Notes: generated by a model from the letters alone, not told the origin. Numbered from the stretch's first letter, positions 1 to 48,330 are shown. The stretch: DNA of 63,273 nucleotides from a virus (IMGVR_UViG_3300048583_000095:1-63273), one strand, 5' to 3'. Numbers and translations: made by a program.

Positions 1-127
1 CGGCCGGATCGCGACGGTACCCGACATGCTCTCTTGCCGGGCCGCGAGCATCGGCCCCATGTCGGCGAGCGCTTCGCGAAGCGCGGCGCTCGCGCGGGCG
101 CGCTGGGAATCGTCGAGATCGGCGGCG
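1..127. repeat. 127-bp exact end overlap (copy 1), identical to 63147..63273: circular closure or terminal redundancy
   Basis: Compared base by base: 1-127 equals 63147-63273, so the unique length is 63146 bp. Confidence 0.95.
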
Positions 128-519
128 TCGAGCGCCTTCGTGAGCGCCCGAGCGATCATCTGCGCCTCAGCACGCAGCGAATCGATGTATCGCTCAGAGA
201 GCCCCGCGCGCACCGCGTCGGCCGCGACCTTCGTGAGGTGCGCGCGCTCTTTGCGACTCTGCTCGATCCACTGCCGCAGCTCGTCGCCCCGCAGGCGCAC
301 GGCGATCTCGTAATCGGTCGCCTTCTCGAAGTCGCCCCCGTCCGAGTCGATGAGCGCGCGCTCGCGCTTCGCCTCAAGGTCGATCCGCTCGTCGATCCAC
401 GCCGCGCGGTACGCGCTCCGGCGCACCTCCCCCAAGATCGCATCCCACGGGTTCACGTTCAGTTCGCCTGACCACGGTCGCCGTGCAAGCTCGTATGTCG
501 GGTCGCTCTCGTCGTCCAT
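1..519 (-). CDS. hypothetical protein, 5' part of a gene that crosses the circular junction (continues 63146..63063; about 200 aa in total)
   Basis: Minus-strand ATG at 519-517 preceded by CGAGAGGACGAGCG RBS motif. Translation MDDESDPTYELARRPWSGELNVNPWDAIL... stays open to position 1. Absent from the ORF track because it leaves the window. Confidence 0.7.
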   Translation of the reverse strand, partial: MDDESDPTYELARRPWSGELNVNPWDAILGEVRRSAYRAAWIDERIDLEAKRERALIDSDGGDFEKATDYEIAVRLRGDELRQWIEQSRKERAHLTKVAADAVRAGLSERYIDSLRAEAQMIARALTKALDAADLDDSQRARASAALREALADMGPMLAARQESMSGTVAIRP

Positions 520-560
520 CGCTCGTCCTCTCGAATGTCACGCTCGGTAGCCGATTTTCG

Positions 561-862
561 AGCCTGTGCAGGGATCGCTGTGCAGGTGTGCAGGGATCGG
601 TTGCATTTTCAGTTCTACATTCTATGTTGTACTACATATGTTCTAATTTTTGATTCTCACATAAGAGATCAGGATAAACCCTGCAATCCCTGCACACCGC
701 AGGTCAAAGACTCTTCGAACCCTGCACGCATCCCTGCACAGCATCCCTGCACACATCCCTGCACAGATCACGATCAGATAACATACCAAGTGACTAGGAC
801 ATCACCCGAAGTAGCTGTGCAGGGATCGCTGTGCAGGGATCGGCCTTCGATCCCTGCACAGC
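561..862. repeat. iteron/operator array: 12 copies of TCCCTGCACA-like 10-mer (7 forward, 5 inverted) around an AT-rich core at 601-680
   Basis: Forward copies near 679, 687, 719, 731, 744, 756, 851. Inverted TGTGCAGGGA copies at 565, 579, 587, 816, 830. The longer unit GCTGTGCAGGGATCG is duplicated at 563-586 and 814-843. Confidence 0.9.
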
Positions 863-882
863 AAAATTGTCACGCTCCGTAA

Positions 883-2493
883 TCAGATTTCGGAGCTGAG
901 ACGCGCGCCGCGAAGCACTTGGACTTGGCGGCCGTCGATGCGCGTGCGCGAGCCTTCGAGCTGCCCCGGGTACGCCGCGAGCAGGTCGCGGAAGAAGACG
1001 TTCTTCCCCTTCGCCATGTACCCCTCGCTCGCGCACCACAGCGTGTAAGCCTCGTACACGCTGTCTTTCGGCGACATGGCTTCGGGCGACATGTCCATCA
1101 CGAGGCAGTCGGACGCGAACGCCTTGATCGGGCTCGCCGACCGCTCGACGTCTTCCATCGACGCCGCGACGCTCTCGCCGATCGTGAACCGGCCTTCCCG
1201 GTCCCACAGCCGGTCCGCGCCGTCGAGCGCCCATGTGAAGATGCCCGGCAGCTCGTCGGCGAGCGTCCGCTTCAGGTTGAAGTCCTCGCGACCGAGGAAC
1301 CCTTCGACGCGGATGCGCAGCGGCAGGAACCGCGACGCGAGTGCGCCCGTCGAGTCGCGAAGGTCGGGCATGTCGTTCGAGACGATCATGAGCCGCGCGC
1401 CGAGCTTGACGTTCAGCTCGTCGCGGTTCTTCCGGTTCACGGTTACCGGGTCCTCACCCGAGATCATGAGCAGCTTCTCGACGATGGCGGGATCGCTCTT
1501 GCCGATCCGTGCATCCCCGACGATCGCAAGGCGCTTGCCCAGCATGGGCGCGAGCCCGAAGGGCTCGGCGAGCCGCGCCATCGTCGGGTGGTCGACCTGC
1601 CCCGTCCCGCCGAGCAGCTGCTCAAGGACCCATGCGATCGTGCTCTTACCCGAGCGCCTCGGCCCGACGAGCGTCATGATCTTGTGCAGTCCCGTCGAGC
1701 CCGCGAGCACGTAGCCGAACCACTCTTGCAAGAGCGCGTGCGAGTCCGCATCGCCCGGCCACAGCTCGTCTAGGAACTTGAGCCACCGGTCGCACCGCGC
1801 GCTCGGCTCGTAATCGACCACGACGGCCGTGTCCGTGAAGAAGCTCGGCGTGTGGTCGACGAGCGTGCGCGCCGCCGCGCCGCCTTCGCGCGGGCACCAC
1901 AGCAGGCCGTTCCGCACGCACGTGATCTCATCGCCGGGCATGGTCTCGGACGCTTCCGACCGGCGCAGCCACGCCGGGACGTCCATCGATTCCCTCATGC
2001 GCATCTGCGACGCCATCGCTTCGACGACTTCGCGCACGCTCGACGTGTTCGGCGACCACGGGCGCGGCTCGGCTCCGTCCTTCGTGACGTGCATGTACTG
2101 CGCATCGGCGAGCAGCGTCCGTACGGCGTCGGCGACGGCATAGCGGTTGTCCGCCCCGCCGAGCCGCAGGTACGCGCCGCCCGTGTCGCCCTCGCGGTAC
2201 AGGTACCACTCGTCGCGCCAGTGCTTCAGGTGAATCCCGGCGTCCGCGAAGAGGTACAGCAGGAACCGCGCGACCTTGTCGGGTTCCTTCGGCCCCGGAA
2301 CCGGCTCGTCGAGCGTGACGCTCTCGGGCAGGAACCGGTACGACTGGTCAAGGTCGACGACGGCCGTCGCGTCGGGCAGCTCGTCGGCGCGCTCGCGCGC
2401 TCCAGTGATACCGCCGACGATGCTTGCGGCGAAGTCGTCCGTTTCGGGCGTGCTAGGGTCGGTTTCAGGGTTATCTGTCTGGTCGTCGATCAT
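883..2493 (-). CDS. DNA primase/helicase, D5/P4-type NTPase
   Basis: ORF 883..2631 trimmed to ATG 2493 (GAAAGGTGA RBS just after the PrimPol stop). Walker A VGPRRSGKST. D5/P4-like C-terminal region. Confidence 0.85.
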   Translation of the reverse strand: MIDDQTDNPETDPSTPETDDFAASIVGGITGARERADELPDATAVVDLDQSYRFLPESVTLDEPVPGPKEPDKVARFLLYLFADAGIHLKHWRDEWYLYREGDTGGAYLRLGGADNRYAVADAVRTLLADAQYMHVTKDGAEPRPWSPNTSSVREVVEAMASQMRMRESMDVPAWLRRSEASETMPGDEITCVRNGLLWCPREGGAAARTLVDHTPSFFTDTAVVVDYEPSARCDRWLKFLDELWPGDADSHALLQEWFGYVLAGSTGLHKIMTLVGPRRSGKSTIAWVLEQLLGGTGQVDHPTMARLAEPFGLAPMLGKRLAIVGDARIGKSDPAIVEKLLMISGEDPVTVNRKNRDELNVKLGARLMIVSNDMPDLRDSTGALASRFLPLRIRVEGFLGREDFNLKRTLADELPGIFTWALDGADRLWDREGRFTIGESVAASMEDVERSASPIKAFASDCLVMDMSPEAMSPKDSVYEAYTLWCASEGYMAKGKNVFFRDLLAAYPGQLEGSRTRIDGRQVQVLRGARLSSEI

Positions 2494-2509
2494 CGCTCTC
2501 GTCACCTTT

Positions 2510-3439
2510 CTACGTTTCACGGACGGGAGCGTGATCGACGGCCTTCGCCGTCTGTGCTGCCCGTCCCGCTTCCCAACCGGACGTGAAGGTTCGCATCTGC
2601 TGCTCGCGCGAGTCGTTCGCCCCGGCCGCATCCATCGCGTCGAAGCACCACGCGCGCGCGGCGTCTTCGCTCGGCTCGCCGTATAGAGCTGCTAGCGTAC
2701 CGAGCCGGAAGGCCGTCCGGTTGAGCATGTCGTTCCGCGATCCGGGGGCCGACCGTGCCAACTTCCGCACGCTCTCGGCCGCTTCGTACTTCGCCCATCG
2801 CGCCCCGCCTGCTCCCATGCGCGCGCGGACGTCGGCGTTCGTCATGGGCTCGGCGCTCGCGTTTCGGCGTTTCTTGCAGAGTGGAATCAGCCACTCGGGC
2901 GCGCTCGCAAGCGTCGTGATCTTCCGGCCGTCCCGCTCGATCAAGCGGTAAGCGCCGACCTCGGGAGCCCGCACGTATCCACGGATGCCGCGCACGTCGA
3001 GCCCCGGCGCGAGCTGCTTCGACGAGTTGCGCACGCCGCCTTCGGCCCCGCTCGCCTCATCCCAGGCGAAGTAGACGTGTGCGCCGCCGCTCGGCGTCCG
3101 AACGGTCATGGTTCGCGTGAAGGCGTCGACCGTCCCGCCGTGCCGCTGCGTGAGGTCGCGCAGCGTCGCGAAGCCGTCCGCGTCCTTCACGTCGATGTCG
3201 AGCACCCACGTGCCCGACTCGGGGCCGGTGGCGATCCCGACGCCGCAGCGCGAGAAGTTGCCCGTCCACCACTCCCGAATCAGGTCGGCGTCGAGCGTGG
3301 CGCGCTCGGGCCACTCGGCGAAGGCCGGAGTGCCGGTGTCGGCGCGCAGGGGGAACACCCGGAACCCGAGCCGCGAGCAGGCGTACGCCGCCGCGCCGGG
3401 AGTCGCCGAAGCGAACCGGGAAAAAGTCACACTAGCCAC
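2510..3439 (-). CDS. bifunctional primase-polymerase (PrimPol/AEP) domain protein
   Basis: GTG start with GATGAAAGGA RBS motif. N-terminus FRVFPL...CGVGIATGPESGTWVLDIDVKD is typical of PrimPol domains. Confidence 0.8.
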   Translation of the reverse strand: MASVTFSRFASATPGAAAYACSRLGFRVFPLRADTGTPAFAEWPERATLDADLIREWWTGNFSRCGVGIATGPESGTWVLDIDVKDADGFATLRDLTQRHGGTVDAFTRTMTVRTPSGGAHVYFAWDEASGAEGGVRNSSKQLAPGLDVRGIRGYVRAPEVGAYRLIERDGRKITTLASAPEWLIPLCKKRRNASAEPMTNADVRARMGAGGARWAKYEAAESVRKLARSAPGSRNDMLNRTAFRLGTLAALYGEPSEDAARAWCFDAMDAAGANDSREQQMRTFTSGWEAGRAAQTAKAVDHAPVRET

Positions 3440-6862: not shown

Positions 6863-6890
6863 TGTCAGACGAACGATGAAAGGACGACAC

Positions 6891-8705
6891 ATGGCATTGC
6901 AAGGCGTGAACTTGCACCTCGTCGAGACGTACGACGACGTCGCGAAGTGCCTTGAGTGGCTATCCGGCCTCACCTGCGACCGGCTCGGCTTCGACACGGA
7001 GTCGACCGGCCTCTCTCCCGAAGTCGACTCCGTGCGCCTCGTGCAGTTCGGCGACGCGTTCACCGGATGGGCGATCCCGATCGACCGGTGGTACGGCCTC
7101 GTCGAAGAGATCGTGAGCCGGTGGAAGCGGCGCGGCCGGTTCGTCGCACACAACGCGCGGTACGACGTCGCCATGCTCCGCAAGCACGGGATTCACATCC
7201 CCGTGCACCTGGTCGACGACACGATGATGCTCGCACACATCGTGAACCCGACCGTCTCAGTCGGCCTGAAGCAGCAGTGCGCGAAGCACATCGATCCGGT
7301 CGCCGCAGCAGCGCAGCAGCAGTTGAGCGACGTCATGCGTTCGGGCGGGTACACATGGGCGACCGTGCCCATCGCGGCGACCGGGCCGTGCGCCGTGTAC
7401 TGGATTTACGCTGCGCTCGATCCGGTGCTCACGGTCCGGCTGTGGGAATTCCACTGGCCTACGGTCGCGAAGATCGCGCCCCGCGCGTACGACATTGAGC
7501 TGTCGGTGGGGTGGATCGCCGATCGCATGGAACGCAAGGGTGTGATGATCGACCGCGAGTACACGCAGACGAAGCAAGCCGAGTTCGTCGAACTGCACGA
7601 CGCGCTCGCGAAGCGCGGGATCGACGAGTTCGGGGTGAACCTCGGGGCTTCACAGCAGATCGTCGACATCCTCGTGCGCGACGACGTGCCGCTGTGGAAG
7701 AAGACGCAGGAAGGCGCGTGGTCGCTCGATAAGTTCGCGCTCGAAGGCATCCGGCACCCGCTCGTGCAGCTCTTGCAGGAATACAAGCGGGTCGAAAAGC
7801 TGAACTCGACGTACCTGCGCCGGTTCCTGGAGTACTCCGAACTCGACGGCCGCTTGCACCCGAGCATCAATACGCTCGGCTTCAAAGAGCAGACGTCGGG
7901 AGCCTTCGGCGTGATCACGGGGCGCATGTCGATGTCGAAGCCGAACTTGCAGCAGCTTCCGCGTGTCGACGAGGATGATCCGCTCTCGATCGTGGTGCGG
8001 AACTGCGTCGTGTCGTCGCCGGGCTCGACGCTCGTCATGTTCGACTTCGATCAGATCGAACTGCGGATCATGGCGCACCTCACGCAGGACCCGGGATTGT
8101 TCGACGCCTTCGCGCAGCCAGGCGACTTCTTCACGTACATGACGCAGACGATCTACGGCGATCCGACCATCGTGAAGAAGGACCCGCGTCGCAGCCTCAC
8201 GAAGTCGTACGTCTACGCCTCGAACTACGGCAGCGGGAACGACCGGCTCGCGCGGACCACACACATTCCGCTCGCCGAGATCGAAAAGCTCGCGGCCGAC
8301 TACAAGCGCGCATACGCCGGAGTCCCGAAGCACCAGCGGGCCGTGCAGCGCGAGGCCGAGCAGCGGTACAAGGCCGAAGGGCTCGCGTACGTCACGTCGC
8401 CCATGACCGGCCGCCGCTTCATCGCCGACGATTACCGCAAGCTCTATCCCCTGGTGAACTACCAGATTCAAGGGCTCGCGGCCGAGATCATGAAGACGAA
8501 GCTACTCGAACTCGACGCGGCCGGACTCGGCGATTACCTCGTACTCGCCGTGCACGACGAAGCGATCTCCGAAATCCCCGACGCGGACGTGCCGGACGCG
8601 ATCGAGACGATGAACACGATCATGAACGACGACAAGTTGCTGTCGCTTCCGCTCACCTCGGGCGGCGCGACCGGAAAACGATGGGCGGAAAAGAAGGATG
8701 TCTAG
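6891..8705 (+). CDS. DNA polymerase I (family A) with 3'-5' exonuclease domain
   Basis: Exo motifs DTESTGL, HNARYD, YAALD. Pol motifs DFDQIELRIMAHL, RRSLTKSYVYASNYG, VHDE. ATG after GATGAAAGGACGACAC. Confidence 0.92.
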   Translation: MALQGVNLHLVETYDDVAKCLEWLSGLTCDRLGFDTESTGLSPEVDSVRLVQFGDAFTGWAIPIDRWYGLVEEIVSRWKRRGRFVAHNARYDVAMLRKHGIHIPVHLVDDTMMLAHIVNPTVSVGLKQQCAKHIDPVAAAAQQQLSDVMRSGGYTWATVPIAATGPCAVYWIYAALDPVLTVRLWEFHWPTVAKIAPRAYDIELSVGWIADRMERKGVMIDREYTQTKQAEFVELHDALAKRGIDEFGVNLGASQQIVDILVRDDVPLWKKTQEGAWSLDKFALEGIRHPLVQLLQEYKRVEKLNSTYLRRFLEYSELDGRLHPSINTLGFKEQTSGAFGVITGRMSMSKPNLQQLPRVDEDDPLSIVVRNCVVSSPGSTLVMFDFDQIELRIMAHLTQDPGLFDAFAQPGDFFTYMTQTIYGDPTIVKKDPRRSLTKSYVYASNYGSGNDRLARTTHIPLAEIEKLAADYKRAYAGVPKHQRAVQREAEQRYKAEGLAYVTSPMTGRRFIADDYRKLYPLVNYQIQGLAAEIMKTKLLELDAAGLGDYLVLAVHDEAISEIPDADVPDAIETMNTIMNDDKLLSLPLTSGGATGKRWAEKKDV

Positions 8706-14498: not shown

Positions 14499-14570
14499 GC
14501 CTTCGTAGCTCATTGGCAGAGCAGCGGCTTCCAAACCCGCGTGCAGGTGGTTCGATTCCATCCGGGGGTG
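14499..14570 (+). tRNA. tRNA-Trp(CCA)
   Basis: Hand fold: acceptor GCCTTCG/CGGGGGT (G-U rich), D-arm GCTC..GAGC, anticodon loop TTCCAAA, T-arm GGTGG-TTCGATT-CCATC, G73. Confidence 0.75.
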
Positions 14571-14680
14571 CGTAGTGTGTTGATCCGTACATTGCAAGGC
14601 CACGCGACTAACCATCGCAACGGATCGACCGGCTCGGGTAGCTCCCGGGACCGGAAAAGGCTCCCGGTGGTTCGGGGGTA

Positions 14681-14746
14681 AACGTACTAGCTCAATGGCA
14701 GAGCACCCGGTGAGGGAGGTTCGGGGTTCGATTCCCCGGTACGTTA
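14681..14746 (+). pseudogene. tRNA-like remnant (66 nt) with a truncated anticodon arm
   Basis: Perfect acceptor AACGTAC/GTACGTT, D-arm GCTC-AATGGCA-GAGC and T-arm CGGGG-TTCGATT-CCCCG. Only 17 nt lie where 22-23 are needed, and no canonical anticodon loop forms. Confidence 0.5.
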
Positions 14747-14770
14747 CGAGGCGCGCAAGCGCCACACGAT

Positions 14771-14840
14771 GCGGGATAGCTTAAGGGTAGAGCTGCGGCC
14801 TCATAAGCCGTAAGGTGCCGGTTCGACTCCGGTTCCCGCT
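14771..14840 (+). tRNA. tRNA-Met(CAT) (could be elongator, initiator or Ile2 type)
   Basis: Acceptor GCGGGA/TCCCGC, anticodon stem GCGGC/GCCGT, loop CTCATAA, T-loop TTCGACT; the T-stem/acceptor junction is irregular. Confidence 0.65.
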
Positions 14841-14902
14841 ACTAGGACGGTTCGGCACGGAGTGCTCGGGGATGCACCTCATGGGAACCCGGATCGTCCG
14901 AT

Positions 14903-14987
14903 GGAAAGTGCGTGTATTGGCAAGCACAGCCGGGTTGCTAACTCGGCGATCCCGCACGGGGTCGGGGTTCGATTCCCTCACTTTCCA
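14903..14987 (+). tRNA. tRNA-Ser(GCT)
   Basis: Acceptor GGAAAGT/ACTTTCC, loop TTGCTAA, long variable arm, T-loop TTCGATT. Confidence 0.8.
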
Positions 14988-15088
14988 CTTTCGTTCCCAC
15001 GGGATGACACGGGTACGGGAGAAGGGGAACCGGCAGTACGTAGGAACTAGGCCGATGTGGCTAGGTGACCGCAAGTGCTGCCGGACAT

Positions 15089-15178
15089 GGAAAGTATGCG
15101 CCAACGGGTGCGCACCTGGTCTCGAAAACCGGGACGTCGGCCGCGAGGTCGGCGGGGGTTCGAATCCTCTACTTTCCG
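15089..15178 (+). tRNA. tRNA-Ser(CGA)
   Basis: Acceptor GGAAAGT/ACTTTCC, anticodon stem CTGGT/ACCGG, loop CTCGAAA, long variable arm, T-loop TTCGAAT. Confidence 0.8.
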
Positions 15179-15183
15179 CGCAA

Positions 15184-15269
15184 TGGCGTCAGTCGCAGGT
15201 GCGACAGCGAGCCTGTAAAGCTCGCGTCGGGGAAACTCGACAAGGTGGGTTCGATACCCACGGCGTCAA
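15184..15269 (+). tRNA. tRNA-Tyr(GTA)
   Basis: Anticodon stem CGAGC/GCTCG, loop CTGTAAA, long variable arm, T-arm GTGGG-TTCGATA-CCCAC, acceptor TGGCGTC/GGCGTCA with two G-U pairs. Confidence 0.65.
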
Positions 15270-15330
15270 CAAAGCGGCTTCGGTTCCAACACACTACTAA
15301 CGGTGCGCTGGTCTCGACCCGAAGCCGCGA

Positions 15331-15403
15331 GCCCGCCTAGCTCAGCGGATAGAGCATCCGGTTCCGGACCGGAAGGCGCGTGGTTCGAGTCCACGGGCGG
15401 GCA
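15331..15403 (+). tRNA. tRNA-Arg(CCG)
   Basis: Acceptor GCCCGCC/GGCGGGC, stem TCCGG/CCGGA, loop TTCCGGA, T-loop TTCGAGT. Confidence 0.85.
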
Positions 15404-15434
15404 CGCCAGATACACGACGAAAGAGGATGGATAC

Positions 15435-15848
15435 ATGCGAAAACTGACGAAGACGCTCGTCGCCGCTGCCGGTGCCGCGACGCTCGGGGTCACGCTCACG
15501 GCGTGCACCGCAGCCGACACGGCTTCACACAACATCTCCACAGCGGCCGAGAACTTCGAAGTCCTACGGCGCATCGTGTTCTTCAACGGGATCACGGACA
15601 CGTACCTTCTGACGATCGAAGGCCGCTGCAACATCGAAGACGAGGGCAATCAGCTCGAAGTCACGTGCAAGATCGCGGACGGCGACGGCGAGAACGCGTA
15701 CACGAAGCACTTTCTCGGCCTGTCCGACAACGTGACATACTTCGTCGAGCAGATGGAAGTCGTCGATGTCGACGAGTTCCATCACCGGATCATCTTCCGG
15801 CCCGAGACGATCGTGCCGGACATCGATCTAGAGACGTCGGGCAACTAA
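15435..15848 (+). CDS. secreted lipoprotein (signal peptide with lipobox LTAC)
   Basis: ORF 15303.. trimmed to ATG 15435 because the upstream part overlaps tRNA-Arg. N-terminus MRKLTKTLVAAAGAATLGVTLTAC. Confidence 0.8.
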   Translation: MRKLTKTLVAAAGAATLGVTLTACTAADTASHNISTAAENFEVLRRIVFFNGITDTYLLTIEGRCNIEDEGNQLEVTCKIADGDGENAYTKHFLGLSDNVTYFVEQMEVVDVDEFHHRIIFRPETIVPDIDLETSGN

Positions 15849-15854
15849 GCTTCA

Positions 15855-15872
15855 CGGGGGTGCGAGCCCCCG
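15855..15872 (+). terminator. short stem-loop after the lipoprotein gene
   Basis: CGGGGG-TGCGAG-CCCCCG. Confidence 0.45.
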
Positions 15873-15880
15873 GAAGCCGA

Positions 15881-15953
15881 GCGGGTTTAGAGTAGCGGTC
15901 ATCTCGTCACATTCTCAATGTGAAGATCACGGGTTCGAATCCCGTAACCCGTG
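15881..15953 (+). tRNA. tRNA-Glu(CTC)
   Basis: Acceptor GCGGGTT/AACCCGT, stem TCACA/TGTGA, loop TTCTCAA, T-arm ACGGG-TTCGAAT-CCCGT. Confidence 0.8.
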
Positions 15954-16037
15954 CAAGGCGACATGAGGCATACGAAGAAGGTCGCCCCGATCATCGGTCG
16001 GGAGCCGGGGGAGCCTCATCTCCGGCTCTGAAATAAA

Positions 16038-16111
16038 TGCCTTGTGGTGTAACCCGGCAACACGCTAAGCTTTGGACTTAGAGATTCTTGGTTCGAATCC
16101 AAGCGGGGCAG
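16038..16111 (+). tRNA. tRNA-Gln(TTG)
   Basis: U1-A72 acceptor TGCCTTG/CGGGGCA, stem CTAAG/CTTAG, loop CTTTGGA, G73. Confidence 0.8.
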
Positions 16112-16119
16112 CTATACGA

Positions 16120-16191
16120 TGCTCGGTAGCTCAGCGGCAGAGCGCGCGACTGTTAATCGCGTGGTCGAAGGTTCGAATCCTTCTCGGGCAG
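16120..16191 (+). tRNA. tRNA-Asn(GTT)
   Basis: Acceptor TGCTCGG/TCGGGCA, stem CGCGA/TCGCG, loop CTGTTAA, T-arm GAAGG-TTCGAAT-CCTTC, G73. Confidence 0.85.
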
Positions 16192-16211
16192 CTCGAACAA
16201 CTGAAGAACGA

Positions 16212-16283
16212 TGCTCGCTAGTTCAATGGCAGAACGGCCGCCTCTGGAGCGGAAGGTTCGTGGTTCGAATCCACGGTGAGCAG
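16212..16283 (+). tRNA. tRNA-Gln(CTG)
   Basis: Acceptor TGCTCGC/GTGAGCA, loop CTCTGGA, T-arm CGTGG-TTCGAAT-CCACG, G73; one mismatch at the top of the anticodon stem. Confidence 0.75.
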
Positions 16284-16341
16284 CTTGGACAAGCAAGACG
16301 TGAAGGCGTGACCAACCGCAGCGATGCGCGCGCCTGATCTA

Positions 16342-16413
16342 GCTCCGGTCGTCTATGGGTTAAGATCCGAGATTTTCACTCTCGGGTACAGGGTTCGAGT
16401 CCCTGTCGGAGTA
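16342..16413 (+). tRNA. tRNA-Glu(TTC)
   Basis: Acceptor GCTCCGG/TCGGAGT, stem CGAGA/TCTCG, loop TTTTCAC, T-arm CAGGG-TTCGAGT-CCCTG. Confidence 0.8.
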
Positions 16414-16605
16414 CGTGTGAGGTGACCGTGTGATAACTCTAGGTGACTCTAGAGCGTGATAACGGGTGAACTCAGGCAATGCCGGGTAAGGCTAGGGTCT
16501 CTCTGCCCCGGTCGCCGAAGTGAGGACTCGACGGTTAGTTTCCGGACGGAACCGCCGATGCCGGGTTAGTCGCCCGAATGCCTCGCGGAAGCGAGGAGAG
16601 AATAT
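16414..16605 (+). ncRNA. unassigned structured spacer inside the tRNA array (candidate small RNA)
   Basis: 192 nt with no tRNA T-loop and no ORF. Local hairpins CTCTAG-GTGACT-CTAGAG, CCGGG..CCCGG, CCTCGC-GGAA-GCGAGG. GTGATAAC is repeated twice. Confidence 0.3.
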
Positions 16606-16677
16606 GCCGTGTTAGCTCATTGGTAGAGCGTTCGCCTGTCGAGCGAAGGGTAACGGGTTCGATCCCCGTACATGGCG
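16606..16677 (+). tRNA. tRNA-Asp(GTC)
   Basis: Acceptor GCCGTGT/ACATGGC, stem TTCGC/GCGAA, loop CTGTCGA, G73. Confidence 0.85.
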
Positions 16678-16714
16678 CAAGGTTCCGACCGCTGACAGGA
16701 CGGCCGGAGCCGGA

Positions 16715-16786
16715 CGGGTTATGGCCTAGTGGGATGGCGCGTGATTTGGGATCACGAGGACCCCGGTTCGATTCCGGGTAACCCGA
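16715..16786 (+). tRNA. tRNA-Pro(TGG)
   Basis: Acceptor CGGGTTA/TAACCCG, stem CGTGA/TCACG, loop TTTGGGA, T-arm CCCGG-TTCGATT-CCGGG, A73. Confidence 0.85.
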
Positions 16787-16788
16787 CT

Positions 16789-16861
16789 GTGACGTTAGCT
16801 CAGCGGCAAGAGCGTTCGGATGTGGCCCGAAAGGTCGCGGGTTCGAATCCCGTACGTCACC
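16789..16861 (+). tRNA. tRNA-His(GTG)
   Basis: Acceptor GTGACGT/ACGTCAC, stem TTCGG/CCGAA, loop ATGTGGC, C73; no encoded G-1. Confidence 0.85.
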
Positions 16862-16876
16862 CCAACTTCATAGCAA

Positions 16877-16950
16877 GCCCCGTTAGCCCAACTGGCAGAG
16901 GCGTCTGATTTAGGTTCAGAAGGTTCCGAGTTCGACTCTCGGACGGGGTA
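16877..16950 (+). tRNA. tRNA with Leu anticodon TAG but a short (class I) variable arm
   Basis: Acceptor GCCCCGT/ACGGGGT, stem TCTGA/TCAGA, loop TTTAGGT, 5-nt variable region AGGTT, T-arm CCGAG-TTCGACT-CTCGG, A73. Confidence 0.6.
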
Positions 16951-16955
16951 CGTAA

Positions 16956-17028
16956 GCTCGTGTAGTCCAACGGCAGAGACACCGGATTCAAATCCCGGCA
17001 AGTCCCGGTTCGAATCCGGGCACGAGTA
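16956..17028 (+). tRNA. tRNA with Leu anticodon CAA but a short (class I) variable arm
   Basis: Acceptor GCTCGTG/CACGAGT, stem CCGGA/CCCGG (one A-C mismatch), loop TTCAAAT, variable CAAGT, T-arm CCCGG-TTCGAAT-CCGGG, A73. Confidence 0.6.
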
Positions 17029-17032
17029 CAGC

Positions 17033-17105
17033 GCCCCGGTAGCTCAGCGGATAGAGCGACGGTCTACGAAGCCGGTAGTCGATGGTTCGATTCCATCTCG
17101 GGGCA
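17033..17105 (+). tRNA. tRNA-Arg(ACG)
   Basis: Acceptor GCCCCGG/TCGGGGC, loop CTACGAA, T-arm GATGG-TTCGATT-CCATC, A73. Confidence 0.8.
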
Positions 17106-17123
17106 CGCAAGACAACTAGATAT

Positions 17124-17194
17124 GCCGGTGGGGTGTGTGGGTTGCACGACTGTCTTCCAAACAGTTAGACCGTGTTCGAGTCACGGTACCGGTT
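17124..17194 (+). tRNA. tRNA-Gly(TCC)
   Basis: Acceptor GCCGGTG/TACCGGT, stem ACTGT/ACAGT, loop CTTCCAA, T-arm CCGTG-TTCGAGT-CACGG, U73. Confidence 0.8.
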
Positions 17195-17267
17195 CGAGAG
17201 AAGGCGTCGCACAGACAGCAGGTGCGCGCACTGTGAAGGCTCGAAACCTTCGGCGTCTTCTCGCACT

Positions 17268-17340
17268 GCCTTCGTAGCTCAGTGGACAGAGCAGCCGTTT
17301 CGTAATCGGCCGGTCCGGGGTTCGAATCCTCGCGGAGGCT
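17268..17340 (+). tRNA. tRNA-Thr(CGT)
   Basis: Acceptor GCCTTCG/CGGAGGC, loop TTCGTAA, T-arm CGGGG-TTCGAAT-CCTCG. Confidence 0.8.
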
Positions 17341-17406
17341 CAAGGCTCGACAACGGCAGTTGGCGAGTTCGGCAAGACGTCAAATCTCGACCCCGAGATT
17401 TGAGAT

Positions 17407-17480
17407 GTCTCGTTAGCTCAGTTGGCAGAGCACCGGAGTGAAGTCCCGGGCGGCGTGGTTCGATCCCACGGCAAGAGACG
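17407..17480 (+). tRNA. tRNA-Phe(GAA), atypical T-stem/acceptor junction
   Basis: D-arm GCTC-AGTTGGCA-GAGC, stem CCGGA/CCCGG, loop GTGAAGT, T-loop TTCGATC. Acceptor GTCTCGT/AAGAGAC only fits with 2 extra nt or a 7-bp T-stem. Confidence 0.55.
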
Positions 17481-17506
17481 GTTAAGTGTGCTGCTATACT
17501 CGACGC

Positions 17507-17905
17507 ATGACGAAACGTGAAAATTACAATGAGTACATGCGCGAGTACATGCTTAAGCGATACCACCGACGCCGGTCGGACTCGATCGAGAATCTAGGCG
17601 GGAAGTGTGTCGTCTGCGGCACCACGGACAATCTAGAGATCGACCACATCGACCGGAGCACGAAGACGATGGATATCAGCGGCCTATGGTCGTGCAATAT
17701 CCAGCGGTACGAGACGGAACTCAAGCTCTGTCAACTGCTGTGCGAAGCGCACCACCAGGAGAAGACGAGCCGGGAAAGCTCTGTACCTCACGGAGGCGGC
17801 GCGTCCGGTAAGCGCAACTGTAAATGCGAACCGTGCAGACTTCGCAAAAACGAATATATGCGCAATTGGAAACAAAAGAATAAGCAAGCCTCGTTAGCTC
17901 AGTAG
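17507..17905 (+). CDS. HNH endonuclease
   Basis: CVVCGTTDNLEIDHIDRSTK ... LLCEAHHQEKT HNH/zinc motif. ORF 17486.. trimmed to ATG 17507. The last 18 nt overlap tRNA-Lys(CTT). Confidence 0.85.
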   Translation: MTKRENYNEYMREYMLKRYHRRRSDSIENLGGKCVVCGTTDNLEIDHIDRSTKTMDISGLWSCNIQRYETELKLCQLLCEAHHQEKTSRESSVPHGGGASGKRNCKCEPCRLRKNEYMRNWKQKNKQASLAQ

Positions 17906-17961
17906 GTCAGAGCTTCCGGCTCTTAACCGGTAGGTCCCTGGTTCGAATCCAGGACGGGGCA
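17888..17961 (+). tRNA. tRNA-Lys(CTT)
   Basis: Acceptor GCCTCGT/ACGGGGC, loop CTCTTAA, T-arm CCTGG-TTCGAAT-CCAGG, A73. Confidence 0.85.
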
Positions 17962-17962
17962 C

Positions 17963-18035
17963 GCCTCGCAAGCACATGTGGACGTGCTCTCGACTTTTAA
18001 TCGAGAGGTACCCGGTTCGAGGCCGGGGCGGGGCA
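17963..18035 (+). tRNA. tRNA-Lys(TTT)
   Basis: Acceptor GCCTCGC/GCGGGGC, D GCAC/GTGC, stem CTCGA/TCGAG, loop CTTTTAA, T-arm CCCGG-TTCGAGG-CCGGG. Confidence 0.85.
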
Positions 18036-18043
18036 CGTTTTAC

Positions 18044-18118
18044 ACCCCGCTAGCTCAGCGGATAGAGCCGGAGTTTCCTAAACTCTGTGGGTCTCGGGTT
18101 CGAATCCCGGGCGGGGTA
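18044..18118 (+). tRNA. tRNA-Arg(CCT)
   Basis: Acceptor ACCCCGC/GCGGGGT, stem GGAGT/ACTCT, loop TTCCTAA, T-loop TTCGAAT. Confidence 0.8.
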
Positions 18119-18119
18119 C

Positions 18120-18194
18120 GGCGAGTTAGCTCAACATGGTTAGAGCGCGATCCTGATACGATCGTGGTTCCGAGTTCAAATCTCGGGCTCGCTA
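18120..18194 (+). tRNA. tRNA-Ile(GAT)
   Basis: Acceptor GGCGAGT/GCTCGCT, stem CGATC/GATCG, loop CTGATAC, T-arm CCGAG-TTCAAAT-CTCGG. Confidence 0.8.
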
Positions 18195-18195
18195 C

Positions 18196-18268
18196 GCACC
18201 GGTAGCTTAGTGGCAAAAGCAGCGGCTTTACATACCGCTGATCGAAGGTTCGAGTCCTTCTCGGTGCA
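18196..18268 (+). tRNA. tRNA-Val(TAC)
   Basis: Acceptor GCACCGG/TCGGTGC, loop TTTACAT, T-arm GAAGG-TTCGAGT-CCTTC, A73. Confidence 0.8.
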
Positions 18269-18357
18269 CGGATACGCACGCTGTGCATGGCGTGTATAGA
18301 CGGGGTTAAGTACCGTCTCGCGGGGATGTCGCTCCCGTGTCCTCCCATGCGGCGCAA

Positions 18358-18430
18358 GGGCTGTTAGCTCCAACGGTAGAGCGTCTGTTTTGCAAACAGA
18401 GGGTTGTCGGTTCGAATCCGTCACGGTCCA
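18358..18430 (+). tRNA. tRNA-Ala(TGC)
   Basis: Acceptor GGGCTGT/ACGGTCC with a G3-U70 pair, stem TCTGT/ACAGA, loop TTTGCAA, A73. Confidence 0.85.
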
Positions 18431-18485
18431 CGGAGGGTGCGAGCGCGTGTTAACGACTTCGGCGCGCGCTCGCGCTCTACCCCAC

Positions 18486-18556
18486 GGCGTGATGTCCGAG
18501 TGGCTAGGTCGCAGACTGCAAATCTGCTCACGTGGGTTCGAATCCCGCTCGCGCCT
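18486..18556 (+). tRNA. tRNA-Cys(GCA)
   Basis: Acceptor GGCGTGA/TCGCGCC, stem GCAGA/TCTGC, loop CTGCAAA, T-arm GTGGG-TTCGAAT-CCCGC, U73. Confidence 0.8.
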
Positions 18557-18584
18557 CTCATGAAGTACGACGAAAGGACGAAAG

Positions 18585-18929
18585 ATGGACATTGCGATTC
18601 TCATCGTGCACACGTTGCTGTGGCTGCTGCTCGGCGCGTTCAGCTTCACGCTGATCGGGAAGCAGACGAAGGGCGACCGACGCACCGGGGTCGCCATCCT
18701 GGCATGGCTGAACGGTATCTTCACGATTGCCTTCGTGTTCTGGTGGGACACGCCCGACACGGCGTCGATGATCGCGAAGTACTCGATCATCGCCTTCATG
18801 TGGATCACATGGCTGCTCAGTCTCCCGAACATCAATAAGCCGTACCCGGTTCCCCGGCTGTGGACGACCACGATCGGCGCGGCCTTGATCGCGGCGCGCA
18901 TCGGCGTCGTGATCGTCTTCTGGCACTGA
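18585..18929 (+). CDS. multi-pass membrane protein
   Basis: ATG after CGACGAAAGGACGAAAG motif; 3-4 hydrophobic helices. Confidence 0.8.
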   Translation: MDIAILIVHTLLWLLLGAFSFTLIGKQTKGDRRTGVAILAWLNGIFTIAFVFWWDTPDTASMIAKYSIIAFMWITWLLSLPNINKPYPVPRLWTTTIGAALIAARIGVVIVFWH

Positions 18930-18940
18930 TAACTCAAGAT

Positions 18941-18998
18941 GAGCGCGCATGAGCGCGCACCTCGTGATGAGCGCGCATCCCCCCGGATGCGCGCTCAT
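18941..18998. repeat. three direct copies plus one inverted copy of ATGAGCGCGCA; the last pair forms a terminator
   Basis: gATGAGCGCGCATGAGCGCGCAcctcgtgATGAGCGCGCAtccccccggATGCGCGCTCATtttcg. Confidence 0.9.
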
Positions 18999-19002
18999 TT
19001 TC
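18967..19002 (+). terminator. rho-independent terminator
   Basis: 12-bp stem ATGAGCGCGCAT / ATGCGCGCTCAT followed by TTTCG. Confidence 0.8.
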
Positions 19003-19003
19003 G

Positions 19004-19020
19004 TACTCTGATACAATTCG
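19004..19020 (+). promoter_or_regulatory. class-1 phage promoter-like box TACTCTGATACAATTCG
   Basis: One of four near-identical ACTCTGAYAnnATTC boxes (also at 46415, 53852, 56533), each 23-35 nt upstream of a start codon; -10-like TACAAT. Confidence 0.6.
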
Positions 19021-19047
19021 CTGACGACGAGATGAGAGGACGAAACG

Positions 19048-20268
19048 ATGAACGATTTCACTGCTACCCCGAACGGCGCGCTCGTGAGCGCGCTCGCGCT
19101 CGCAGCGCTCATGATGATCGTGATCGCGCTCGTGACCTCGCGCGGTGCGCGAGCGCGCGCAGTCGAGAAGGCGCGCGCATGGGCGGCGCTCAAGGCTCCC
19201 GAGTGGGAAGCGCGCGCTGAGCGCAAGCGCGAAGAGCGCGTATCCGGCGCGCGTAACCGAGCGCGTATCCGGGGCGCGCTCTTGCTCGCCGTCGCGCTCG
19301 TCGCGCTCGGCGCGACGAACCTGAGCGCGCACGGGACGCTCGACATGATCGCGCGCGCCGGTCTCGACTCGCTTGACGCGCAGATCGCCGTAATCGTCGT
19401 CTTCGAAATGTTCCTTGCGATTCTAGGGGCGCTCTCGTACTGGCACATGCACCACGGCACCGGGTTTAACAAGTACGAAGCTGGTGTGTGGGCGATGGCG
19501 TCGCTCATGGGCGTGCTGTCGTGGTGGGGCGCGGGAAGCATGATCTTCGCGCTGTGGCCGCTTCTCGCGGCCGTTGCGTGGCACATGGTCATCACCTTCG
19601 GACGCGAGCACAAGACGTCTCCCCTGATCACCTGGTGGCGTCTGAAGCGAGGCAAGGCGACCTCGCGCGACGCGAGCACGGTCATCACTGAGCGCCTGAT
19701 CACCCGGATCGTGAACAACGGCTACGCCGCCAACGAAGGCGCGAAGCTGCTGCGCTCGGCGCGCTCGCGCGCGTTCGACCGCGCGTGGGCGGAAGCCGAC
19801 GCGCTCGGCATCCTCACGCCCGAGGTGCGCGCGCGCATCCAGACGCGCACGGCCGCGCGCTACGCAGGCGCGAGCGCTCTCGCGCGCGACGCCGTCATGC
19901 ACATGAGCCCTTGGAATGAGCGCGCGCAGAGCGCGCGCACCGTGCGCGCAGTGCGCCCCGTGAGCGCGCCCCCCGCACTCGCCGTCGAGACGAGCGCGCA
20001 CGAGGACACCGACGAGCGCGCACCCGAGATCGTCGAGAGCGCGCCCGCGCGCGTCGTCCTTCCCGGCGCGCACACCACGGCCGATCTGATCGACGCCGTC
20101 AAGGCGAACTTCGCCGGACCGGTCGAACTCGTCGAGTGGATCGAGACGTTCATTCGCACGAACGGCGCGCTGCCCACCCGGAACGACCTCGCGGTTCCCG
20201 CGCAGAAGTCCCCCGGGCACGTGGCCCGATGGATGATGCCGGTCCGCAAGGAACTCGGCCTCAGCTAG
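19048..20268 (+). CDS. membrane protein with a C-terminal soluble domain (DUF2637-like, tentative)
   Basis: N-terminal half has about 4 TM helices (LLLAVALVALGA.., IAVIVVFEMFLAILGAL.., VWAMASLMGVLSWWGA.., ALWPLLAAVAWHMVITF). Ala/Arg-rich linker. Immediately upstream of the FtsK-like gene. Confidence 0.7.
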   Translation: MNDFTATPNGALVSALALAALMMIVIALVTSRGARARAVEKARAWAALKAPEWEARAERKREERVSGARNRARIRGALLLAVALVALGATNLSAHGTLDMIARAGLDSLDAQIAVIVVFEMFLAILGALSYWHMHHGTGFNKYEAGVWAMASLMGVLSWWGAGSMIFALWPLLAAVAWHMVITFGREHKTSPLITWWRLKRGKATSRDASTVITERLITRIVNNGYAANEGAKLLRSARSRAFDRAWAEADALGILTPEVRARIQTRTAARYAGASALARDAVMHMSPWNERAQSARTVRAVRPVSAPPALAVETSAHEDTDERAPEIVESAPARVVLPGAHTTADLIDAVKANFAGPVELVEWIETFIRTNGALPTRNDLAVPAQKSPGHVARWMMPVRKELGLS

Positions 20269-20470
20269 CGGCACAGTGAGCGGCACACCGGCACAGCTGG
20301 TGTGCCGCTCCGGCACGGTTCCCACCGGCACCGGCACACCCCCTTTGGGTGTCTGATCAGGGAAAACACCGATCCGACACGCTCGGCACGGTGTGCCGGA
20401 CTAGCGCGCGACAAAAACGAATGTGCAGGTCGGGCACCCCTAGGGGGTGCCCGCCTGGTGTGCCGTGCCG
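20269..20470. repeat. array of 11 CGGCAC hexamers (7 forward, 4 inverted) in an intergenic region
   Basis: Forward at 20269, 20281, 20289, 20311, 20326, 20332, 20384. Inverted GTGCCG at 20302, 20393, 20460, 20465. Includes palindromes CGGCACAGCTGGTGTGCCG and CGGCACGGTGTGCCG. Confidence 0.9.
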
Positions 20471-20476
20471 GAGGGG

Positions 20477-20484
20477 TGTATAAT
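20477..20484 (+). promoter_or_regulatory. consensus -10 element TGTATAAT downstream of the CGGCAC array
   Basis: TATAAT at 20479-20484 preceded by TG, 40 nt upstream of ATG 20525. Confidence 0.55.
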
Positions 20485-20524
20485 GAAATACCTGATCAAT
20501 CCACAGACGAAAGGACGACAGACT

Positions 20525-20995
20525 ATGGATATCGCGATTGAAAGCACGCTCGGGAACGGTGCCGCTGGCTTCGTTTCGCTCGTGCTCTTCGTCGGCGCGT
20601 GGATTCTGAACAACGTGCTCGATCAAAAGAAGTGGTCGGCGTTCCTCGTGCTCCCGATCGCGCTCACGGCCTCGTTCGTGCTGTACGCGTCGACCTGGTC
20701 GGCGACGTGGTGCCGCTGGATCGGCAACATCTTGGGCGGCGTCGGCGGGATGTTCGGCGTTGACGACATGCCGCTGAGCTTCATCTTCAGTCTCGCCTGC
20801 GTCGTCGCCGTCGTCGTCGTCGCGGCCGACCTCAGCATCGACCCACGCGACAACCCGGCCGCCGTGTGGTCGCTCTTCATCGCGCCGGTCACGGCGCACG
20901 GAGCGGGCGGCGTCGTCGGCAGCGCGGCCGACGCCTTCTTTAGCGGGATGGCTCTCGGGCTCATCGACGCCGTGAAGCAGTTGACGGGCGCGTGA
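20525..20995 (+). CDS. multi-pass membrane protein
   Basis: ORF 20447.. trimmed to the ATG after AGACGAAAGGACGACAGACT; 4-5 hydrophobic helices. Confidence 0.75.
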   Translation: MDIAIESTLGNGAAGFVSLVLFVGAWILNNVLDQKKWSAFLVLPIALTASFVLYASTWSATWCRWIGNILGGVGGMFGVDDMPLSFIFSLACVVAVVVVAADLSIDPRDNPAAVWSLFIAPVTAHGAGGVVGSAADAFFSGMALGLIDAVKQLTGA

Positions 20996-20996
20996 C

Positions 20997-46716: not shown

Positions 46717-46744
46717 TGAGCCCGCCCCTTCGGGGGCGGGCTCA
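46717..46744. terminator. bidirectional terminator hairpin
   Basis: TGAGCCCGCCCC-TTCG-GGGGCGGGCTCA between convergent genes. Confidence 0.8.
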
Positions 46745-48292
46745 TCGGCGTGGAACGAGGCTCGTCGGGATGCCGGACGGGAAGCCGGGGATGAACGAGT
46801 TCGGGAACACCGCACCCGGACCGGCGATGCCTCCCGTGAGGTCGGCGGCGTCGAACGCCTGCCGCGAGTCCGACACGGGCGGAATCCAAATGCCGTCGAA
46901 GAACGCGAGTAGCAGCGCGTCGGCGATGTCGGGAGAGCGGCCGAGTCGTTCCTTCACATCCTCTTTCGGCTCGACGAGGATGCGGCCGTTCTTCTCTAGA
47001 TAGCGCGGCATCGTGAGTTCGGCAATCGCATCATCGTCGAGGTTCGCGAGTGACCACGCCTTGTCCCGGGACAGCTCGCGGCCGTGCCACCAGGCTTCGG
47101 CGCGGATGTTCACGAAGCGCTTCGGGAAGTTCGAGCGGTCGGAGAACTTGACGCTCTCGATCGCCACGCCTTCGGCCTTGAGTTCCTTGCGCAGCATCCC
47201 GGCGAGGCCCCACCCGACGCCGATCGTGTCGACGTTCACGCGCGTGAGTCGCCATCGTCGGATCACGTCGGCAAGCTTCTCGGCCGCCGCTTCGGGGTCC
47301 CGTTCTTGGAACGACTCGACGCGGCCGACAGCGTCGTTCACGCGCTCGACGAGCACCGTACGGTCGCCGCCCGCACCGATGTCGAGCCCGCCGACGCGCA
47401 CCGGATCGGCGTCGTAGGCCGGTTCGATGTAGCGGCACGCGGCGGCGTGCACTTCGGAGATCACGCGCCACGGGTCGGCCGCGCCGGTCGGGAAGTGTCC
47501 GAGTACCTTCGCCTGATACAGCGCCGACTCTTCGCCCCACTCGGCGCGCCGGTCTTCCGCCCACTCCGGCGAGATCAGGTAGTCGAGCAGTTCGGCCGGG
47601 ACGGCTTCGCCCGTGAGCGCGGGCGCGTGCTCGATCCCGATGTGAATGACGTTGTACGGGCTCGACGGCTTGCACGCCGTCGCGAGTGGCGAGTGCGGCA
47701 GGTCGGGGTTCCCGATCGCGAGGATGCGAGAGAGCCGGTTCGATGCGATCGACTCGGCCGCCTCCCAAATCTTCGTGTCGACGCCTGAAGCCTCGTCGAG
47801 AATGACGAGCACGTACTTCGAGTGCACACCCTGAAACGCGGCTTCGTTGTCCTTCGACGTGGTGCGGCCGAAGGCAACTAGCTCTTCGCCTCCGGCGTCG
47901 TTCGGGATGTACCACTCAGTGAGGTTCACCCGGCCGAAGAGGTTCGCGCGCCCGTGCAGGCGGCCGATTTCACGCCAGAGCAGCGCCTTCACCTGCGGTG
48001 CGGTCGGCGCAGTCGAGAGTACGAAGGCTTCGCCGGGCTTGTGCGAGGCAATCCACCACGCCGCCGTCACGGCCGCCGTGAACGTCTTGCCGACGTTGTG
48101 GCACGAGTGCACGGCCGTGCGTCGGTGGTCGCGTACGGACTGAATCACGTCCCGCTGCTTCGACCACAGGTGCACGCCGACGTCGGTCGCCCACCGAACG
48201 GGGTCGGCCGTGTAGTCGATCTTCGCGCGCTCGGCATCGTCGAGCGCGGCAATGATCTCTGTCGCGAGGTCGGGCGATTCAGGCGCGTGCAT
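46742..48292 (-). CDS. terminase large subunit
   Basis: ORF trimmed to ATG 48292. Walker A-like HSCHNVGKTFTAAV, Walker B VLVILDEASGV, C-terminal nuclease-like region. Confidence 0.85.
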   Translation of the reverse strand: MHAPESPDLATEIIAALDDAERAKIDYTADPVRWATDVGVHLWSKQRDVIQSVRDHRRTAVHSCHNVGKTFTAAVTAAWWIASHKPGEAFVLSTAPTAPQVKALLWREIGRLHGRANLFGRVNLTEWYIPNDAGGEELVAFGRTTSKDNEAAFQGVHSKYVLVILDEASGVDTKIWEAAESIASNRLSRILAIGNPDLPHSPLATACKPSSPYNVIHIGIEHAPALTGEAVPAELLDYLISPEWAEDRRAEWGEESALYQAKVLGHFPTGAADPWRVISEVHAAACRYIEPAYDADPVRVGGLDIGAGGDRTVLVERVNDAVGRVESFQERDPEAAAEKLADVIRRWRLTRVNVDTIGVGWGLAGMLRKELKAEGVAIESVKFSDRSNFPKRFVNIRAEAWWHGRELSRDKAWSLANLDDDAIAELTMPRYLEKNGRILVEPKEDVKERLGRSPDIADALLLAFFDGIWIPPVSDSRQAFDAADLTGGIAGPGAVFPNSFIPGFPSGIPTSLVPRR

Positions 48293-48303
48293 ACCGTGAG
48301 TAT

Positions 48304-48330
48304 ACGAAAACGGCCGCCCGAAGGCGGCCG
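48304..48330 (-). terminator. terminator hairpin upstream of the terminase gene
   Basis: Coding-strand CGGCCGCC-TTCG-GGCGGCCG followed by TTTTCG. Confidence 0.65.

Follow-up and report, generated by a model that had tools for sequence, protein, structure and literature searches.

Iteron origins and SF3 helicases

The origin (ori) of P4 is composed of short iterons in both orientations. A DnaG-type primase is fused into the P4 alpha protein, and P4 also depends on crr, a second cis element several kb from ori. Iteron theta plasmids, such as RK2, pPS10, F, and R6K, place the sites for their winged-helix initiators (Rep, TrfA, and pi) beside an AT-rich unwinding element. Plasmid iterons are usually 17-22 nt long, are directly repeated, and lie on one side of the unwinding element. 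The plasmid Reps are not helicases; they recruit the host proteins DnaA, DnaB, and DnaC.

The Reps of the SaPIs are self-loading SF3 helicases whose C-terminal winged helix recognizes iterons (PMC9371898). The SaPI origin is found immediately downstream of rep and has 6-12 iterons of 5-6 nt; two or more lie on each side of an AT-rich center, and the two sides are oppositely oriented (PMC9371898). The SF3-plus-winged-helix organization is shared by the P4 alpha protein, whose domain (1ka8) has been aligned, together with the RFX domain (1dp7), to the C-terminal domain of the pRN1 replication protein (PMC2777425). According to PMC4234260 and PMC2777425, pRN1 has an essential cis region downstream of its replication gene.

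The phage genome and its replication operon

The window, which is the whole stretch of DNA analyzed here (IMGVR_UViG_3300048583_000095, 63,273 nt), has ends that are identical over 127 nt (1-127 and 63147-63273), which makes the assembly a circle of 63,146 nt. The phage is tailed, and its genome, with 64% GC, encodes a large terminase, a portal, a major head protein, a family-A DNA polymerase (6876-8705), an SNF2 helicase, and a PD-(D/E)XK nuclease. A megablast search of GenBank phages with positions 1-3000 of the window returned no match, and the best protein identity to cultured phages is at most ~35%, so no close annotated relative was usable. The top matches of the DNA polymerase are actinobacteriophages. 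The genome carries 28 tRNA genes in total, a large set for a 63-kb phage: 27 are found within 4 kb at 14499-18557 (+), and an isolated tRNA-Ser is at 58096-58182 (-).

The replication genes form a leftward operon of three genes, in which PrimPol (2510-3439) is followed by the SF3 helicase (883-2493), a gap of 363 nt (520-882), and a gene of PHROG 3678. The gap extends from the helicase stop codon (883-885) to the next ATG (519-517), and both of its flanking genes are on the minus strand. A PrimPol gene is found upstream of the helicase in all relatives fetched. The features of this region, in the order of transcription, are:

2510-3439, minus strand: PrimPol-type primase gene, 309 aa, first in the leftward replication operon (Pfam Prim-Pol PF09250, E 2.9e-29; PHROG DNA primase families)
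883-2493, minus strand: SF3 (D5/P4-type) helicase gene, 536 aa, with a predicted C-terminal winged helix; proposed initiator (Pfam DUF5906, Pox_D5)
868-892, minus strand: boundary element A, TGTCACGCTCCGTAATCAGATTTCG on the plus strand, overlapping the helicase stop codon; a direct repeat of 536-560 with 76% identity
814-862, both orientations: helicase-proximal iteron block from the repeat search, with copies at 816-825 (-), 830-839 (-), and 851-860 (+)
766-813, no strand: spacer with conserved blocks in the alignment of 17 origins, e.g. CCTAGTCAC and TATGTTATCTGA on the gene strand
678-765, plus strand: middle iteron block, six copies, all plus, at 678-687 (degenerate), 687-696, 719-728 (degenerate), 731-740, 744-753, and 756-765
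600-679, no strand: AT-rich core with 30% GC, proposed DNA-unwinding element
563-598, minus strand: distal iteron block, three copies, all minus, at 565-574, 579-588 (degenerate), and 587-596
536-560, minus strand: boundary element B, TGTCACGCTCGGTAGCCGATTTTCG on the plus strand, just before the next gene's ribosome-binding site; the other copy of the direct repeat
1-519 and on across the junction to 63063, minus strand: downstream gene, PHROG 3678 (E 3.7e-14), which bounds the proposed origin but lies outside it

Two of these genes had been described somewhat differently. The helicase had been taken as its longest ORF of 582 aa, whose extension (2494-2631) overlaps the PrimPol gene. Homologues instead set the start at the ATG at 2493-2491, 16 nt after the PrimPol stop, and the protein has 536 aa. 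The downstream gene had been called junction-spanning; it is an ordinary gene on the 63,146-nt circle.

The iteron array

Read from the helicase stop, the gap is composed of a boundary element (868-892), a palindromic iteron block (814-862), a 48-nt spacer, six iterons (678-765), the AT core (600-679), three iterons that point the other way (563-598), the other boundary element (536-560), and the ribosome-binding site. Exact copies of the 10-mer TCCCTGCACA number nine on both strands, all in 565-860, where shuffles expect 0.04. Genome-wide enumeration finds no exact copy outside the gap and a single copy with one mismatch elsewhere, in agreement with the expectation of the preliminary description that the 10-mer is confined to this region. 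Its count of seven forward and five inverted copies is right if three degenerate copies (579-588 TGTGCAGGTG, 678-687 ACCCTGCAAT, and 719-728 ACCCTGCACG) are included, since the gap has 12 CCTGCA cores: in the plus orientation at 680, 689, 721, 733, 746, 758, and 853, and in the minus orientation at 567, 581, 589, 818, and 832. The duplicated longer unit that it had reported is the 15-mer GCTGTGCAGGGATCG, which occurs in tandem at 814-828 and 828-842. This 15-mer is also found inverted once at 848-862, and 14 of its 15 bases are matched at 564-577.

The proximal block (814-862) is a perfect 15-nt inverted repeat with a 5-nt spacer, and its nearest iteron (851-860) lies 22 nt past the helicase stop codon. 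In the middle block, the iterons are spaced 9-13 nt apart, and a repeat period of 12-13 with 3.8 copies is detected. The distal and middle blocks face each other across the AT core. The array is asymmetric, with three copies on one side and nine on the other, where 814-862 forms a third block.

Apart from simple (GC)n runs, there are no other dense repeat clusters in the genome. Short repeats of the (GC)n and GAGCGCGC types are abundant at 20850-21400 and at about 18900-19350, and these stretches are found inside or beside the ORFs 19048-20268 and 20447-20995 and the FtsK-like gene 20997-22814.

Other annotations of the gap were considered and set aside. An ORF that crosses it (535-882, plus strand, 115 aa, ATG start) is spurious because gene callers place no gene there in any of the eight relatives fetched for the wing test described below, and because the indels in the alignment are not multiples of three. 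Three terminator-like matches inside the array are iteron or spacer sequence without convincing T-tracts. An Rfam scan of the window found only tRNAs, and it gave no match in the gap.

The AT core and the boundary elements

The core (600-679) is the lowest-GC 80-nt window of the genome, with 30% GC against a mean of 64%, and the next lowest has 37.5%. This confirms the earlier report of an AT-rich segment of about 80 bp in a high-GC genome. In each of the 14 loci L001-L014, the 80-nt window with the lowest GC of the 7-13-kb locus lies just downstream of the helicase; these loci represent 12-13 distinct relatives, as the contigs L010-L013 are near-duplicates. Three blocks of the core are sequence-invariant, 601-611 (TTGCATTTTCA), 619-625 (ATTCTAT), and 633-649 (TACATATGTTCTAATTT), and 27 of the 49 columns of 601-649 are invariant in an alignment of 17 genomes. 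About half of the core is invariant, which an unwinding element that depends on composition only fails to explain. The core may therefore have another role that depends on its sequence, for example as a promoter, a site for a host factor, or a priming site. The clade with 55% helicase identity still has the motif AATGCAA next to the distal iterons. The spacer (766-813) has 10 invariant columns out of 48 in the 17 origins and is unchanged when the iteron type switches.

The 25-nt boundary elements have the consensus CCGAAATCCGGTTACnGAGAGTGAC on the gene strand, and there are no further copies in the genome besides 536-560 and 868-892. Both are kept in place in relatives down to 55% helicase identity, despite differing iterons. 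An RNA hairpin was considered for these elements and rejected, as their folding energies are no better than those of shuffles (z +0.33 and -0.62). Together, the invariant half of the core and the 25-nt elements at the edges suggest additional sequence-specific partners.

The gap could also be read as an attP, with arm-type integrase sites around the core. Many short sites that point either way do surround the AT-rich segment here, as in the arms of an attP. However, no integrase family was found among the 48 ORFs scanned with Pfam and PHROGs, and in all lineages examined the array is linked to the helicase gene and not to a recombinase. These observations make an attP exceedingly improbable.

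The helicase as a candidate initiator

The closest solved relative of the helicase is 7OLA, the SaPI5 PriRep. The match has an E of 1e-7 with the single sequence (phmmer, residues 279-549) and of 1.2e-28 with a 68-sequence family profile. With this profile, sequence matches to the DNA-binding domains of RFX5 and RFX1 are found as well. Homologues of the helicase are labelled 'phage/plasmid primase, P4 family' in database sources. A fused DnaG/Toprim-type primase domain was not found, as the helicase has only the DUF5906, Pox_D5, and weak D5_N matches.

The AlphaFold2 (AF2) model of the last 143 aa has a pLDDT of 87 and is a winged helix; the modeled segment ends with a helix, a helix, and a beta-hairpin. 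In the PDB, the model is closest to the DNA-binding domains of RFX5 and RFX1 (E 7e-4 and 2.8e-3, TM 0.75-0.78), followed by the ASFV PrimPol and the Orc1/Cdc6 winged helices bound to origin DNA. The P4 alpha domain (1ka8) is absent from the best 50 structural matches of the model. The C-terminal domain of the helicase is predicted to be an RFX-type winged helix. RFX touches DNA via helix 3 and the wing (PMC2777425).

Comparison with the described origins

Every sequence-level feature by which PMC9371898 recognizes a SaPI origin is found in the array. As in the SaPIs, the array lies immediately downstream of the helicase ORF, here and in the relatives; its iterons (nine exact and three degenerate) fall within the range of 6-12; and they surround an AT-rich center of ~80 nt. 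The iterons likewise point in opposite ways on either side, with three minus copies at 565-596 and six plus copies at 678-765. The shared features also include an SF3 initiator with a C-terminal winged helix, predicted in the present case, a primase gene before the helicase, and an iteron sequence that is specific to the lineage. The differences concern the replicon as well as the array. A SaPI is a satellite island of a low-GC host, whereas this is a virulent-looking phage of 63 kb and 64% GC with its own DNA polymerase. Its iterons are 10-11 nt long instead of 5-6 nt, and they form three blocks (3 + 6 + 3) instead of two symmetrical sets. Each edge has a conserved 25-nt element, the primase is a PrimPol, and the similarity of the helicase to 7OLA is remote, with a phmmer E of only 1e-7. 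A SaPI-type initiator would also be specific for its own iterons and melt the AT region without ATP; for the phage helicase, the co-variation of its wing with the iterons is indirect evidence of such specificity.

P4 also combines an SF3 helicase and a C-terminal winged-helix origin-binding domain in one protein (PMC2777425), an arrangement predicted for this phage. In contrast to P4, the primase is encoded by a separate PrimPol gene, and scans of the whole genome for the 10-mer and for repeat clusters find no second iteron region resembling crr. The likeness to the theta plasmids is that repeated sites lie next to an AT-rich element and that the initiator, by prediction in this phage, has a winged-helix fold. 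Unlike plasmid iterons, those of the array are 10-11 nt long, occur in both orientations, and face each other across the core, and the proposed initiator is itself a helicase. No Rep_3-type protein was found among the ORFs scanned. A conserved DnaA box was not found in the gap, where the sole DnaA-box-like sequence, TTATCCTGA (7/9), is not kept among relatives. The PrimPol, SF3 helicase, and winged-helix modules of the pRN1 protein ORF904 are all present here, but in pRN1 they are fused in one protein, and in the phage PrimPol and helicase are separate genes. Iterons could not be identified in pRN1 by the authors (PMC2777425), whereas they are conspicuous in this genome.

Co-variation of the helicase wing and the iterons

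In 17 close genomes, the iteron switches at nearly all 12 sites from TGTGCAGGG to TGTTCCGGG, GTGCCGGG, or ATCCGGG, while the AT core, the spacer, and the boundary elements are kept. The helicase of L003 is 90% identical to that of the window, yet TGT(T/G)CCGGG replaces TGTGCAGGG at most of the 12 sites, and its AT core and spacer are the same.

Divergence of the whole C-terminal domain was rejected as a marker of the L003 switch. L004 is equally divergent, with 18 unique substitutions in this domain, and its iteron is unchanged. The domain is thus variable generally, its overall divergence is uninformative, and a column-wise analysis was needed. The columns that separate CGGAC-type loci (L003, L008, and L009) from CTGCA-type loci are all within residues 490-571 of the 582-aa ORF, and R562K and Q571P, in the same numbering, are strict separators. 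When PrimPol, the helicase, and the downstream protein of the 17 genomes were aligned, 3 of 1,068 columns separated the iteron classes: helicase R516K, Q523(L/H/P), and Q525P (536-aa numbering). All three residues fall in the wing hairpin predicted by the AF2 model. Residue 523 further subdivides the CCGG class, as loci with L at this position have TGTTCCGG, those with H have GTGCCGG, and those with P have ATCCGGG. The pattern suggests that three residues of the helicase wing choose which repeat is recognized.

The 39 closest database homologues have two wing alleles, GR(H/T)RVDG(R/K)QVQ and GKNRV.G(K/R)(L/H/P)VP. Eight further contigs were fetched, and their iteron class was predicted from the wing allele before the DNA was seen. 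The prediction was right for 5 of 5 KN..P wings and 2 of 3 Q..Q wings. All of the KN..P wings have CCGG-type iterons: L168, L169, and L175 carry TGTTCCGG, L170 carries 10 copies of GTGCCGGG, and L171 carries 11 copies of ATCCGGGAT. The Q..Q wings of L173 and L174 go with CCCTGCAC. The exception, L172, has the variant wing SRNRVDGKQVQ and degenerate TGTGC(A/G/C)GGGAT iterons, and may be an intermediate or a relaxed-specificity state. The iterons at L172:3086-3492 are non-uniform and include TGTGCGGGG, TGTGCACGG, TGTGCCGGG, and TGCAGGG.

The wing alleles are scattered on the tree of the helicase core, with at least four placements. The wing codons are only 30-60 nt from the first iteron, and recombinational co-inheritance through this physical linkage could produce part of the association without functional coupling. 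Linkage leaves unexplained why the iteron positions alone have changed and the intervening sequences are constant. A co-varying DNA-binding protein may also be encoded elsewhere in the genome, beyond the three proteins compared.

More tentatively, and with a little less than an even chance of being right, the wing hairpin would be a natural recognition code, in which residues 516, 523, and 525 set the variable triplet of the iteron. R..Q.Q would read TGT-GCA-GGG; K..L.P, TGT-TCC-GGG; K..H.P, GT-GCC-GGG; and K..P.P, AT-CC-GGG. The remainder of the winged-helix domain would recognize the GGGAT half, which is conserved. Under such a code, phages would repeatedly swap or re-evolve the wing together with the twelve iterons, resulting in orthogonal replicons.

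The array follows the helicase across lineages

Searching IMG/VR with the helicase gave 44 loci. In eight close relatives (77-94% helicase identity), the gap can be aligned over its full length and every block is kept. In L008-L013, L165, and L166 (52-58% identity) and in L167 (44%), the block order and the AT core are kept, and the iterons are the lineages' own (ATCCCGGACAG, CCCCGGACA, ATCCCTGCAA, and GGATACC). In the 52-58% clade, both boundary elements and the AATGCAA by the distal block are present as well. An inverted pair of the lineage's own iteron, equivalent to the proximal block, is found in L008-L010 and L165-L167.

Helicase lineages at 30-45% identity have 5-15 copies of a lineage-specific 8-9-mer right after the helicase stop. 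The typical pattern in these remote lineages is a block in one orientation, a gap of ~90-130 nt, and a block in the opposite orientation. Among 39 helicase-homologue loci scanned, 31 had at least five copies of one 8-mer in their densest 600-nt window. This window lies at the helicase stop in 23 of these 31 loci, with at least 12 different iteron sequences. In L018, 7-10 copies of CGTCATACC are found directly after the helicase, and about 2.2 kb beyond the helicase stop there is a second cluster, with 10 copies of CCGGACCC.

A profile search with E up to 1 detects homologues of the downstream gene in the L001-L014 clade alone. Arrays persist where this homologue is undetectable, and the array therefore belongs with the helicase and not with the downstream gene. 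The downstream protein has no Pfam match. Its AF2 model is a helical bundle of four long helices, without a significant structural match and with none of the helix-turn-helix, winged-helix, or ribbon-helix-helix folds. The protein has 200 aa here compared with 176-179 aa in about 100 homologues, and this length results from a frame-shifting deletion of 11 nt at the 3' end of the gene (about 1-15 of the window) relative to L001, L002, and L004. The deletion could be genuine, or it could come from faulty assembly near the end of the contig.

These observations bear on the other role that had been considered for the array, a multi-operator region for the downstream gene. A repressor or activator on the 12 sites would govern a promoter in the core for the PHROG 3678 gene, or would terminate or autoregulate the helicase operon, and replication would start elsewhere. 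The downstream gene is 363 nt from the helicase and may need its own promoter, and three iterons are found between the core and its ribosome-binding site. The proximal block is a perfect palindrome, as operators often are, and the core is partly invariant in sequence, including a TAGAAT hexamer on the gene strand. However, a sigma-70 consensus scan of 400-1000 finds no promoter: the best candidate -35 hexamer fits 3 of 6 positions, and the TAGAAT-like hexamer is not conserved in the 55%-identity clade. The downstream protein is without a recognizable DNA-binding fold, arrays of the same layout follow helicases in lineages where its homologue is undetectable, and the co-varying positions are found only in the helicase wing. 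A control region in place of an origin is thus unlikely.

A packaging site (pac or cos), where a small terminase subunit would act on repeated boxes that flank a cleavage site, was also weighed. The packaging region of SPP1 has the layout pacL-pacC-pacR, with boxes flanking a central site. The repeated boxes around a central site resemble this layout, and the downstream protein is small and helical. On the other hand, the genes for the large terminase (46742-48481), the portal, and the major head protein are more than 15 kb away on the circle. The array also tracks the helicase across lineages with different neighbors and co-varies with the helicase wing, which makes a packaging site very improbable.

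A proposed mechanism of initiation

The region 520-882 is probably the replication origin of the phage, of the type used by the self-loading SF3 helicases of SaPIs and P4, with a probability of roughly 0.8 on the basis of sequence comparison. The suggestion that the iterons and the unwinding element form an origin beside the primase and helicase genes is favored because the anatomy is of the SaPI type, the helicase has a predicted winged helix, the array is linked to the helicase across lineages, and the wing co-varies with the iterons. The extremes of GC skew are at 3776 and 26719, where they track gene orientation, and the array is not marked.

In the proposed mechanism, the helicase (883-2493, minus strand) would bind the 10-11-nt iterons via its C-terminal RFX-type winged helix. 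The facing blocks, with three copies at 565-596 and six at 678-765, would set helicase oligomers on either side of the 80-nt core. The AT core would then melt, and the helicase would load itself. Subsequently, PrimPol (2510-3439) would prime and the family-A DNA polymerase (6876-8705) would extend. The palindromic block (814-862) would be an additional binding site and may serve in autoregulation or termination. We infer binding, melting, self-loading, and the start of replication at 520-882 from the comparisons above. The array may also have a secondary regulatory role, for example with the helicase at 814-862 as a terminator or autoregulator, or with a promoter in the core.

Implications for uncultivated soil phages

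The candidate origin belongs to the already known SaPI/P4-type iteron origins, and the current concepts of replication initiation are unchanged by these findings. The phage group itself is new and uncultivated. Its ~60-kb genomes recur in many metagenomes, and the array and the helicase provide a concrete candidate origin and a cognate initiator for this widespread group of high-GC soil phages. The pairing of a helicase gene with an iteron origin of its own behind it has been known from SaPIs and P4, and it is now seen in full-size phages across very distant helicase lineages. Four iteron types on a constant scaffold, each with a distinct wing allele, are a ready-made data set for how SF3 initiators read DNA and for the design of orthogonal replicons. 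If the wing hairpin is a recognition code, it would permit replication 'incompatibility typing' among near-identical, co-circulating phages.
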